64,000 bases of DNA from Candidatus Melainabacteria bacterium GWF2_37_15 (lineage in GTDB: Bacteria; Cyanobacteriota; Vampirovibrionia; Gastranaerophilales; UBA9971). The position numbers and the translations under genes are program-made. How positions within the stretch are numbered: the stretch's first letter is position 1; each line of letters opens with the position of its first letter. The notes beneath the pieces are model-generated. The model was not told the DNA's origin. It saw nothing but the letters and a program-made list of their open reading frames with translations, and made no database searches. Where the stretch lies: NCBI GenBank assembly GCA_001784565.1, contig MFRL01000027.1, positions 660 to 64,659 of the forward strand, given 5' to 3'. Shown here piece after piece: positions 19,735-22,034 of this stretch.

Positions 19735-20088
19735 ATGGGTTTAGCAGCTAGCCAAGCAAGATTTTTACAGTTGACTGCAAGGAAAAGTGACCTTGAATTC
19801 CGGGGTCAGCAATTAAACCAGGAACGTACTATTAATGCCCATAATATGGAACAGCTCGTTGAACAAATGCAGGCGGCTGCGCAAGTTGATGATGAAGGCC
19901 AACTGGTAAATCCTAACGTTTATAATGTTATTACAGCTGAACTTGAACTTAAGCACTCGATTGACAGAACACTGGAATTAGAACTTAAAAACGTTGATAC
20001 ACAGCAACAGGAAGTACAAACTGAAGTTGACGCGGTTAGCAAGGTTATAGATAAAAACATTGATATGACCTTTAAAACATTCGCATAA
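19735..20088 (+). CDS. Hypothetical coiled-coil protein (MGLAASQARFLQLTARKSDLEF...)
   Basis: 117-aa ORF with a GGAGA RBS, the first gene after the sigma-28 promoter. It has a heptad-rich Q/E sequence and looks paralogous to the ORF at 21696. Confidence 0.6.
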   Translation: MGLAASQARFLQLTARKSDLEFRGQQLNQERTINAHNMEQLVEQMQAAAQVDDEGQLVNPNVYNVITAELELKHSIDRTLELELKNVDTQQQEVQTEVDAVSKVIDKNIDMTFKTFA

Positions 20089-20091
20089 GGA

Positions 20092-20117
20092 GATTCTGAA
20101 ACAAGTTCAGAATGACA
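20092..20117. repeat. REP-like palindromic element, copy 3 (intercistronic)
   Basis: The sequence is GATTCTGAAACAAGTTCAGAATGACA, with stem ATTCTGAA/TTCAGAAT. It begins 4 nt after the stop codon at 20086-20088. Confidence 0.7.
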
Positions 20118-20145
20118 ATTAAGGAAGAGGAAGAGAAGGAATAAT

Positions 20146-20994
20146 ATGAGCTATAAAAATGATCATTTGCTGACTATTTCAAATAAATACGGCGAAGCCA
20201 GCAGCGACGCCAAAGCAATGGTCTTTGAAACTTATGACAGATTACGAGATTTAACAGTGAGCGGCCCAGGCATTGGGGGCGCTTCTGCATATGGTAATAT
20301 AGGCAATTTCTTTATAAATCTTTCAAAATTAATCGGCCCTTCAAATTATATGCCTGTACTTGGATCTTCTGCGATTAATATTCCGGGAACATCCTACTCA
20401 TCACCGATTAGCGGGGGATATTCATCAATCCCCGGTGTACAGTCAGCATTTGGAATGAGCAGCCTCGGTAAATACCCGGGCTTTCCAACAGGAGGCGCAG
20501 CCTCACTTTATAGTATAATGGCGCTGGGTAGTTCTCTTGTTCCTCTTGCAAGTACGTTTTCAATTGGAGGAATGCCTACAGGCGGAGCATCAGCTCTCAC
20601 CGCAAGTATACCCGGAGGGAATTCATACGTTCCTGCTGTCGGAGCTTTTACCGGATTAACCTCTGCTGGTGCCGGGATTGGTGATATTACCCTTCCTGTT
20701 GCCGGAGTAGTGGGCGGAATAGGTGGCTTAATGACACATATGGCGCCTTATTTTGGGCCAAGCGGCCTGGTGGCAGCGCTTGCCGGAAACTTGCTGAGCG
20801 GGTATTCAGGTGCGGCTGTTAGTGGCTACAATTATATAACCAGCAGAATTATTACAAATGCGGATACTATTCTTACAATGAAGATTAAAAACCTTGAAAC
20901 AACAGTGAAACAGTTGGATACTCAAGGTGAGGTAATCAAAAAAATGCTGAAAAGCGCTATTGAAGCTGATTCAAAAGTTGCAAATGACCTTTAA
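20146..20994 (+). CDS. Hypothetical Gly/Ser/Ala-rich protein with helical N- and C-termini
   Basis: 282-aa ORF with a purine-rich RBS (AAGGAAGAGGAAGAGAAGGA). It has an internal duplication (FPTGGAASLYS / MPTGGASALTAS) and a C-terminal coiled coil. Confidence 0.55.
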   Translation: MSYKNDHLLTISNKYGEASSDAKAMVFETYDRLRDLTVSGPGIGGASAYGNIGNFFINLSKLIGPSNYMPVLGSSAINIPGTSYSSPISGGYSSIPGVQSAFGMSSLGKYPGFPTGGAASLYSIMALGSSLVPLASTFSIGGMPTGGASALTASIPGGNSYVPAVGAFTGLTSAGAGIGDITLPVAGVVGGIGGLMTHMAPYFGPSGLVAALAGNLLSGYSGAAVSGYNYITSRIITNADTILTMKIKNLETTVKQLDTQGEVIKKMLKSAIEADSKVANDL

Positions 20995-21006
20995 TCAGGA
21001 ATAATT

Positions 21007-21231
21007 ATGCAAAGGCTCTACTTAAGATTAATTTTTAGCAGGTTAGAAAAAACTTTATACTTTTTTAAAGACTTTAAAACTTTGGTTTATAACCTTATTA
21101 AACCTGCGGTATACAAAAAAAAGATGATAAAAGTGCTTGAAATCAACAGGAAAAAATTATTAAAAAAGCAGGACATTATTAACTCAAAAAACGGACATAA
21201 AAACGCAAAATTTATGAATGTGACACGTTAG
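21007..21231 (+). CDS. Doubtful ORF, very basic 74-aa product
   Basis: It lies 12 nt after the previous stop, with AGGA upstream. The sequence is low-complexity and K-rich, so it may be non-coding. Confidence 0.25.
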   Translation: MQRLYLRLIFSRLEKTLYFFKDFKTLVYNLIKPAVYKKKMIKVLEINRKKLLKKQDIINSKNGHKNAKFMNVTR

Positions 21232-21390
21232 TTTAGTCGATTACAGGGAATATATTAAATAGGGAAACATAAACATTTGTAACAATTATTTACGTTAAAA
21301 AGTAAATTAACCAGGCTCAATTGTTTTTATATATATAGGAGTAAGTTATTTCTTCTATAAGGGAATTCGTCGAAAAGGAGCACTCCACAA

Positions 21391-21669
21391 ATGTCAGCAC
21401 CAGCAACAGCTATAAGTAACTACTTTAAAAATATGGCAAGCTTTGGCAGGATAACACATTCTTATTTTAGAAGAAGAAATCCTGTTGCTAAGGCGGTGGT
21501 GAACTTTTTAACTTCAATTTATAATCTGTTGAGTTTGAAAAAACGACTAAAATCAATGCAATACCAGGTGCAGCTAACTCAATACAGAATGCACCAAATG
21601 GAAAAAATGATGAATGAAGCCAATCCTTATAATTCACAGGGAGGTTTTCACATTAATAAATACAGATAG
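21391..21669 (+). CDS. Hypothetical small protein (KNMASFG motif, Q/M-rich C-terminus)
   Basis: 92-aa ORF with an AAGGAG RBS 8 nt upstream. Confidence 0.45.
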   Translation: MSAPATAISNYFKNMASFGRITHSYFRRRNPVAKAVVNFLTSIYNLLSLKKRLKSMQYQVQLTQYRMHQMEKMMNEANPYNSQGGFHINKYR

Positions 21670-21695
21670 GTAACAAAGGCACGGGGAATCGAATA

Positions 21696-22034
21696 ATGGG
21701 GCTATTTTCAGGCATAATCGGTCTGGTACACCTACAACAAAGACAGCTAGATCTTGAATATAAAGTTCAGGATATTCAGACTAATATAAATCAGGTTTCT
21801 TCCTATGCAGTGGAACTTGTTACCATTGGGGATGAACTTGATCCTGAATCTGCGGAATTTAAACGGCTTAATACACGAAAGAAAAAGCTCGAATTAATGG
21901 AAAAACGGCTTCAATCTGAGTTAACCAGATATCAAACCCAGTTAAAAATTGTAAACCAGCAACTTGAGTCTTACCAGAAAATGGTTGATGGAAGTATTAA
22001 GAGATTATGCACTTTTGGTGATGCCGGGCGTTAA
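21696..22034 (+). CDS. Hypothetical coiled-coil protein (MGLFSG...RQLDLEYKVQ), paralog-like of 19735
   Basis: 112-aa ORF, last gene before the terminator. It shares the MGL start and the L..L..R..DLE[FY] block with the first gene. Confidence 0.55.
   Translation: MGLFSGIIGLVHLQQRQLDLEYKVQDIQTNINQVSSYAVELVTIGDELDPESAEFKRLNTRKKKLELMEKRLQSELTRYQTQLKIVNQQLESYQKMVDGSIKRLCTFGDAGR

Follow-up and report, generated by a model that had tools for sequence, protein, structure and literature searches.

Introduction

Among described bacterial systems, the closest counterparts of the genes analyzed here are the axial and filament subunits that are handled by type III export pathways. The flagellins (FliC; Flagellin_N PF00669/Flagellin_C PF00700) have conserved terminal helices that pair with one another and a hypervariable center that tolerates inserts, carry no signal peptide, occur in several monocistronic copies per genome and are expressed from sigma-28 (FliA/SigD) promoters, for which the consensus is TAAA-N15-GCCGATAA. 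In type III secretion systems (T3SS), the needle and inner-rod pairs PrgI/PrgJ and MxiH/MxiI are hairpin proteins of 80-115 amino acids (aa) with a strict C-terminus and a diverged paralog in the same operon, and in hrpA-hrpZ-hrpB of Pseudomonas syringae a pilin gene is followed by the gene for a Gly-rich, Cys-free harpin. Each of these has a parallel in five consecutive plus-strand open reading frames (ORFs), A-B-C-D-E, that occupy positions 19735-22034 of a 64-kb stretch of DNA from Candidatus Melainabacteria bacterium GWF2_37_15 (hereafter the window, in which all positions are given): the A family has the same flagellin-like attributes, A and E are a small hairpin protein and its diverged paralog, and A is followed by B as pilin is by harpin. 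These parallels are functional analogies and not memberships. The A-type proteins are a new family, and the kind of system to which they are most similar is one that is already known.

The limits of the resemblance differ from system to system. The A family has no detectable Flagellin_N/Flagellin_C homology, whereas the canonical flagellin in one related locus (L005) was readily detected. What is conserved in the A-type proteins amounts to no more than about 45 + 55 residues, which is close to the extent of D0 in flagellin, and includes neither a D1 domain nor the DDAAG motif. The needle proteins (MxiH/PrgI/YscF, PF09392) gave no Pfam match and no PrgI/MxiH chain was present among the PDB matches at E-values up to 10; the AlphaFold2 model of A (see below) conforms to the fold by which the needle family is recognized, a single hairpin of about 80-110 residues. 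Injectisome genes were not seen in the vicinity, the promoter of the unit is of the sigma-28 type and not a Hrp box, and needle proteins, unlike A-type proteins, are not known to carry large inserts. The WXG100/Esx and PE/PPE proteins of type VII secretion are likewise paralogous hairpin pairs of ~100 aa encoded in one operon, to which the PE_PGRS proteins add Gly-rich regions. However, the A/E loop is D-P-rich with no W-x-G and no conserved Trp, there was no WXG100 Pfam match, and no EssC/EccC-type (FtsK/SpoIIIE-type) ATPase was found in the neighborhoods examined.

Relationship of genes A and E

The initial annotation of this region, made from the sequence alone, had proposed that A and E encode related small coiled-coil proteins. 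The N-termini it quoted are exact and both ORFs are present as it described, and the MGL start and residue spacing it had noticed are borne out by an ungapped alignment of M1, G2, L3, L13, R16, D19, L20, E21, [FY]22, [RK]23 and Q25. In BLASTP the two proteins are 24% identical over 114 columns (E 0.001), and Smith-Waterman alignment, for which significance was estimated from 3000 composition-preserving shuffles, gave z-scores of 6.8 (local) and 6.0 (global), the real score being reached by none of the 3000 shuffles of E and by one of the 3000 shuffles of A. Both ends contribute, as the N-terminal 30 residues alone gave a z-score of 6.5 (4.9 if the MGL was removed) and the C-terminal 45 residues alone one of 6.0. 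Comparison of the family alignments (37 sequences for A, nine for E) with hhalign returned a probability of 97.5% and an E-value of 6e-12 over 102 collinear columns; the D-P loop is aligned, as is a K-[VM]-[IV]-D-x-x-I block at the C-terminus.

Iterated hidden Markov models (HMMs) seeded with A or with E reached an identical set of 148 ORFs in the fetched loci. The N-terminal block that A and E share is also kept in the orthologs of each, with little or no variation at M1, G2, L3 and E21 among the A sequences, none at M1, G2, L3 and L20 among the E sequences, and DLEY retained in most E orthologs. In addition, the E orthologs of gut lineages are clear intermediates between the two (MGMATAQLRLMYL...KNIERSFKY). 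Could the likeness nevertheless be an artefact of composition, A and E being unrelated coiled coils that are both rich in Q, E and L? Such a reading would draw on the low pairwise identity, the modest BLASTP E-value and the fact that profile scores can be inflated by coiled coils, but it is at odds with the outcome of the composition-preserving shuffles, with a profile alignment that is collinear and full-length with the loop included, with the merging of the A and E HMMs on iteration and the existence of intermediates, and with the start, length and synteny that A and E have in common across lineages. We consider the artefact extremely improbable, and effectively already refuted by the profile, shuffle, HMM and intermediate data. 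BLASTP, shuffles, profile alignment, merging HMMs and intermediates all agree, and A and E are, on these comparisons, almost certainly true, diverged paralogs. The accompanying statement that A and E bracket the Gly-rich gene is correct in that B lies between them, but C and D lie between them as well.

The A-type hairpin family

The AlphaFold2 model of A, built from the family alignment, is one antiparallel helical hairpin (helices at residues 3-48 and 60-116, mean predicted local distance difference test (pLDDT) score 91), and the chain stops with the hairpin at residue 117. For the coiled coil that had been proposed, a single antiparallel helical hairpin is the more exact description. Prefoldin beta (PF01920) was considered as an identity for such a protein and rejected: only three of 37 A members match Prefoldin_2, at E 0.074 or worse, the center is the least conserved part of the A family, and the Foldseek comparison with 1fxk gave a template modeling (TM) score of 0.38.

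The finding is larger than the initial annotation saw. An exhaustive search with the A-profile HMM, counted in clusters at 50% identity, recovered at least 3,217 of them at E ≤1e-3 and 1,807 at E ≤1e-10. Most of the top matches are 200-670 aa in length and align in two stretches, their first ~50 and last ~60 residues. Among ~140 representatives that were inspected, nearly all start with MG[LM][AS]ASQ at residue 1-2 and nearly all finish with ...FKTF[AGS] at the last residue, while the length of the center ranges between about 15 and about 550 aa. A-type proteins reach 671 aa. The chain ends, which are the base of the hairpin, are almost invariant, and its tip can accommodate inserts of whatever size. 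Short forms of 109-117 aa are the commonest in Vampirovibrionales and in the window.

A scan of GTDB species representatives for A yielded 506 loci, with 6-7 loci in individual genomes, and many of the copies are solitary, monocistronic and in unrelated neighborhoods. The best 80 of the 506 loci are nearly all labelled Vampirovibrionia, Melainabacteria or Cyanobacteriota; the few exceptions (Gammaproteobacteria, Muribaculaceae or Oculatellaceae) probably reflect wrong labels or bins with contamination. Judged by these labels, the A family is apparently restricted to Melainabacteria. We found no description of it in the literature.

Promoter and transcription unit

Upstream of A lies an exact match to the sigma-28 consensus, TAAAGTATTACTTGAATTTGCCGATAA, which is the only exact one in the window (Table 1). 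Downstream of E, the first of the two terminators (22071-22101) has a 14-bp stem, in which 11 of the pairs are GC, with a T run after it, and the second (22101-22139) has an 18-bp stem; no terminator of comparable strength was found between A and E. As read from these signals, A-B-C-D-E is a single transcript that runs from the sigma-28 promoter to the tandem terminators, and thus a unit that would be switched on with the late flagellar genes.

Table 1. Features of the A-B-C-D-E unit and its flanking transcription signals (window positions).
Feature	Position	Strand	Description
Sigma-28 (FliA)-type promoter	19671..19697	+	TAAAGTATTACTTGAATTTGCCGATAA, TAAA-N15-GCCGATAA, 38 nt 5' of A ATG
Gene A	19735..20088	+	117 aa, MGLAASQARFLQLTARKSDLEFRGQQLNQ N-terminus, acidic helical hairpin, minimal superfamily member
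Gene B	20146..20994	+	282 aa, Gly-rich, Cys-free, conserved terminal helices
Gene C	21007..21231	+	74 aa, very basic, R.Y[IL]R[ST] N-terminal motif
Gene D	21391..21669	+	92 aa, basic, RRNP motif
Gene E	21696..22034	+	112 aa, MGLFSGIIGLVHLQQRQLDLEYKVQDIQT N-terminus, diverged paralog of A
Two adjacent intrinsic terminators	22071..22139	+	3' of E, close transcription unit

The promoter recurs before A genes of other genomes. Promoters and gene architectures were compared across 86 related loci (2.14 Mb, both strands), in which the strict sigma-28 pattern occurs 18 times, 13 of these occurrences being ≤400 nt upstream of unit genes. A slightly relaxed pattern, which required TAAAG, a CGAT core and 7/8 of the -10 box, gave 38 distinct sites. 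Unit genes follow 33 of them: in 24 cases, from Gastranaerophilales and Vampirovibrionales alike, the gene is A, at a distance of 12-78 nt, and in nine cases, all from gut lineages, the site falls between B and D and is ahead of D. The other five sites are upstream of genes outside the unit. Promoter scores of at least 11/12 were obtained for 24 of 144 family upstream regions vs. five of 522 background regions, and the full score of 12/12 for eight family upstream regions vs. none of the background. When 14 upstream regions were aligned, just the two promoter boxes were conserved, with the consensus ATTAAAG.TTT...TGCCGATAA. In the window clade no internal sigma-28 promoter was found before C or D, unlike in the gut Gastranaerophilaceae, and in L005 the canonical flagellin has no convincing sigma-28 motif within 230 nt upstream.

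Because of the promoter match, its enrichment and the presence of an encoded FliA in Vampirovibrio chlorellavorus, the placement of A-type genes in the late flagellar regulon is well supported at the level of sequence, and the operon in the window is probably under sigma-28 control.

The same patterns were seen at several other positions. In the window, a one-mismatch sigma-28-like site at 14552-14578, just downstream of a PilZ gene and before surE (13719-14507), is probably a chance match. In L005 a site at 7332-7358 precedes a gene (7366-9180) directly after a solitary A gene that encodes a 604-aa protein with an HExxH motif; this gene was considered as a B homolog and is not one. Stringent sites also precede a 272-288-aa coiled-coil protein (MYVAIFNT...) at about 1000-1880 in L069, L071 and L073, ~4 kb upstream of gut operons, and a 180-aa Q-rich protein adjoining B in L053 (7822-8364, minus strand). 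By their promoters, the uncharacterized genes behind such sites in L005, L053 and L069/L071/L073 may be further unrecognized members of a Melainabacterial FliA regulon.

Conservation of the unit and genes B, C and D

In Ca. Melainabacteria bacterium GWF2_37_15, hypothetical protein A2Y25_10750 is a 100% match to the gene A product, and its neighbor is one to B. The same five-gene order is found in a different Melainabacterium locus in which the A protein is 70% identical, and dozens of Gastranaerophilales genomes have either this order or A-A-B-(C)-D-E. Across the 86 loci, gut Gastranaerophilales have A(~340)-A(~325)-B(~275)-D(~90)-E(~107), the window clade has A-B-C-D-E, and Vampirovibrionales have A(109)-B-D, without E. 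The conserved core of the unit is A-B-D, and E is the final gene in Gastranaerophilales-type loci with B and D.

More than 523 homologs of B were recovered, all unnamed; those with an organism label are from Melainabacteria, and identity is 42-82% over the full length. B contains 14.9% Gly and no Cys. Its AlphaFold2 model has an N-terminal helix (2-38), a C-terminal helix (205-281) and a disordered center, and a fold search was not feasible because the pLDDT of the model was only 45. The most hydrophobic 19-residue stretch has a Kyte-Doolittle (KD) value of 1.54. B resembles the harpins HrpZ/HrpN in being Gly-rich (15%) and Cys-free with helical ends and no signal peptide, and in being encoded right after a small filament-type gene, but no sequence homology to harpins was detected and the full-length conservation of B across the class is unusual for harpins. 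By shuffle test the C-terminal helix of B resembles that of A (z 5.4). Homology of B to A was tried with hhalign (probability 4%), and the idea that B is homologous to A/E was dropped because the profile comparisons were non-significant (probability 4% and 0.8%).

Net charge differs sharply among the small proteins (A -8, C +16, D +12), and E has a hydrophobic N-terminus (MGLFSGIIGL) and a Gly-rich tail. No signal peptide was found in any of the five proteins. C is conserved in the window clade, and a C-like ORF with the R.Y[IL]R[ST] motif is present in the B-D gap of all nine other loci that were checked, from several lineages. For D, 46 homologs were found in synteny, Vampirovibrionales included, and Pfam and NCBIfam gave no match above noise. 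C and D may themselves be paralogs: both have an aromatic-x-R...NP near the N-terminus and [IL]-N-x-x-R at the C-terminal end (window, L003, L011, L013, L044 and L056), and hhalign gave a weak signal (E 0.0016, probability 16%). If so, the operon would consist of two paralog pairs plus B.

Outside the unit, the Vampirovibrionales A-B-D genes are always preceded by two adjacent uncharacterized genes of ~300 aa in the same order (L001/L002 at 4.6-6.5 kb; L021, L025, L034, L035, L037-L039 and L041). The pair is followed by a holo-ACP synthase gene and, on the opposite strand, one for a phasin-like Lys/Ala-rich (HC2-like) protein. ScpB is encoded next downstream in four Vampirovibrionales loci and ScpA is also among the neighbors. 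The upstream arrangement in Vampirovibrionales may be plain synteny. The upstream proteins were also considered as a shared export component and rejected, as p308/p322 (Vampirovibrionales), p479 (gut lineages) and p629 (L004) are mutually dissimilar. A divergent A subclade has CxxCxxCC (PF03692) genes of ~200 aa, one or two in tandem, downstream on the opposite strand (L045, L046, L049, L051, L052 and L024; several Vampirovibrionales). PF03692 includes the flagellin methylase FliB; these genes were considered as possible FliB-type flagellin methylases, and no NCBIfam model, FliB included, matched them.

What do the hairpin proteins do?

The initial annotation had offered chaperone or adaptor pairs and filament subunits as functions for A and E. 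Filament subunits is the suggestion that fits best, in view of the flagellin-like anatomy and the sigma-28 promoter, whereas a chaperone/adaptor pair fits poorly. Taken together, the flagellin-like build and the sigma-28 promoter make it probable that the family is a new secreted or filament-forming motility component. The specific model that we favor over the others is tentative and may well prove wrong: the hairpin proteins would be exported subunits that leave the cell without a Sec signal via a flagellar-type type III export apparatus, and would assemble, by the packing of their conserved terminal helices, either as a polymer outside the cell or on the flagellum, the variable center being exposed. 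In this scheme A would be the major subunit, E a specialized minor subunit (an adaptor, initiator or cap), B a Gly-rich, Cys-free, harpin-like partner, and C and D small basic helpers, either chaperones or regulators.

Some loci and proteins have possible links to flagella or to the cell exterior. In L003 the genes immediately before the operon are fliJ, one that is FliK-like and a short one that is FlgE-like, and elsewhere flaG, fliS and a fliT-like gene are found at 2-3 kb from a 199-aa A paralog that has a sigma-28 site. The center of one long A-type protein (P0318) contains a dockerin domain, and that of another (P0285) GLUG and an M26 peptidase N-terminal region. The GLUG center of P0285 is, moreover, homologous to the variable center of a canonical flagellin near another A gene (28.7% identity, 261 aa, E 3.6e-10). 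P0301 has a signal-like N-terminus and a trypsin domain, with the hairpin domain fused after them, and P0254 and P0389, judged by eye, have hydrophobic signal- or membrane-anchor-like N-termini ahead of the hairpin domain. We take the dockerin, GLUG and trypsin associations and the signal-like N-termini as pointers to an extracytoplasmic location.

Several observations weigh against exported subunits. Scans of A-E against Pfam, NCBIfam, PHROGs and PADLOC gave sub-threshold coiled-coil noise only, Pfam searches of 37 A members (E up to 10) and 117 long members (E up to 0.001) found no family relative, and PDB sequence and profile searches with A, E, B and one long A form produced nothing meaningful; across Pfam, NCBIfam, PHROGs, PADLOC and the PDB, no sequence relationship to flagellin, rod, hook or T3SS needle proteins or to any other family was detected. 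A Foldseek search of the A model against the PDB returned generic hairpins only (PspA 1-144, Vipp1, Rad50, SMC-like arms and prefoldin), none with E < 0.1, so that the hairpin fold of A is established but uninformative on family. Extracellular-type inserts are rare, with a recognizable domain in just three of the 117 long A members. A Pfam census of the 150 nearest neighboring ORFs found no flagellar families, and homologs of the L003/L004 flagellar genes are absent from the other loci, making physical linkage to flagellar genes the exception. Sigma-28, furthermore, drives non-flagellar genes too in some bacteria. Finally, canonical flagellins are present in Gastranaerophilales and ACD20, and given their coexistence with A in Gastranaerophilales, A is not simply “the” flagellin.

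The superpositions found by Foldseek bear on a different possibility, that the hairpin proteins are a cytoplasmic or membrane-associated coiled-coil scaffold that is co-regulated with motility, for example a PspA/Vipp1-like hairpin polymer that binds membranes or a factor that positions or stabilizes the flagellar motor, with B as a membrane-embedded glycine-zipper partner. The PspA/Vipp1 (IM30)/ESCRT-III proteins have a long antiparallel hairpin and an MG start, the PspA/Vipp1 hairpins (4whe/6zvs) are the top structural superpositions of A (TM 0.79-0.85, E about 0.5-0.7), and E begins with MGLFS, which is comparable to the MG[IL]F of PspA/Vipp1. The absence of signal peptides, the moderate hydrophobicity of the Gly-rich stretch of B and the strongly basic nature of C and D are also in keeping with an internal scaffold. 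Still, the Foldseek E-values are non-significant and any long hairpin matches PspA/Vipp1 targets, there was no PspA_IM30 (PF04012) Pfam match, and the 109-117-aa proteins are without helices 3-5, which ESCRT-III polymers need. The regulation of the A family and its variable tip set it further apart, the dockerin/GLUG inserts and the fusions behind signal-like N-termini point outside the cell, and a hypervariable center and such diversity are atypical for an internal scaffold. We regard this explanation as unlikely.

The same inserts could be read in another manner, namely that the hairpin proteins are exported by the flagellar apparatus but do not polymerize, the hairpin being a secretion or anchoring scaffold for variable cargo such as an adhesin or enzyme. 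Campylobacter FlaC, which is flagellin-like, and other secreted proteins of that genus that are co-expressed under sigma-28 resemble such an arrangement, with which the sigma-28 promoter, the lack of a signal peptide, the dockerin, GLUG and peptidase-related domains in variable centers and the huge sequence diversity of the family would all be compatible. Yet the commonest 109-117-aa forms, in Vampirovibrionales and the window, are without any cargo, and the extreme invariance of the chain ends and the existence of a dedicated minor paralog, E, fit assembly better. A cargo carrier is, in our judgment, as improbable as the internal scaffold.

It is less probable again by a wide step that A and E are a chaperone or adaptor pair that binds or stabilizes the Gly-rich B, a suggestion that we consider very unlikely. 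A is acidic and helical like many secretion chaperones and A, B and E are co-transcribed, but many A genes are solitary with no B nearby, the Vampirovibrionales A-B-D loci do without E, A-type proteins reach their greatest lengths with foreign domains (dockerin, GLUG) inserted, and the multi-copy expansion into thousands of clusters is unlike that of a dedicated chaperone.

Returning to exported hairpin subunits, how far might such a model extend? For V. chlorellavorus the published flagellar gene table lists flgK/L, fliD and fliS/T and, in two sets, genes of the export core and rod (fliPQR/flhAB, fliEF, flgBC), but has no fliC/flagellin entry (PMC4451040 Table S3), although the organism swims by a polar flagellum (PMC4451040). 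V. chlorellavorus carries several 109-aa A-type genes behind sigma-28-like sites (loci L027 and L038), and these multi-copy hairpins could be the filament protein itself. By analogy with the systems above, one might go further and suppose that in Melainabacteria, among them the common human-gut Gastranaerophilales and Vampirovibrio, which preys on algae, A/E hairpins form a second, unrecognized extracellular filament or flagellar outer layer, with flagellar-type T3SS export, sigma-28 control, independently evolved flagellin-like display domains and B as a conserved harpin-like partner. This larger proposal is speculative and we would consider it rather unlikely as it stands.

Other features of the window

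The operon is flanked at its 5' side by a divergently transcribed gene for a 733-aa TPR protein and at its 3' side by an ABC-transporter ATPase gene, and Rfam gave no match anywhere in the window. A 206-aa protein with a PilZ domain (E 1.8e-14) is encoded 4.5 kb upstream of the operon (14562-15182, minus strand); PilZ domains bind c-di-GMP and are frequently connected with the control of motility. A Fic/DOC-family protein (E 4.6e-25) is encoded at 23169-24008 on the minus strand, and the 5' end of its gene overlaps by 39 nt that of a divergent plus-strand ORF (23970-24617) for a 215-aa Lys/Glu-rich coiled-coil protein with no family match.

Implications

The A family is large and wholly unannotated, and it has been seen only in non-photosynthetic relatives of the cyanobacteria, which include widespread species of the human and animal gut. 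The secure part of our analysis alone provides a family worthy of a name, a conserved five-gene module and a marker of the sigma-28 regulon for a class that is almost without experimental genetics. If the A-type proteins are indeed exported hairpin subunits, they would constitute a previously undescribed class of substrate for the flagellar T3SS, or of filament, with an antigenically variable surface of its own. Such a surface would bear on the recognition of gut Melainabacteria by the host immune system, on the attachment of Vampirovibrio to its prey or its swimming toward prey, and on the repeated origin of axial-filament proteins.

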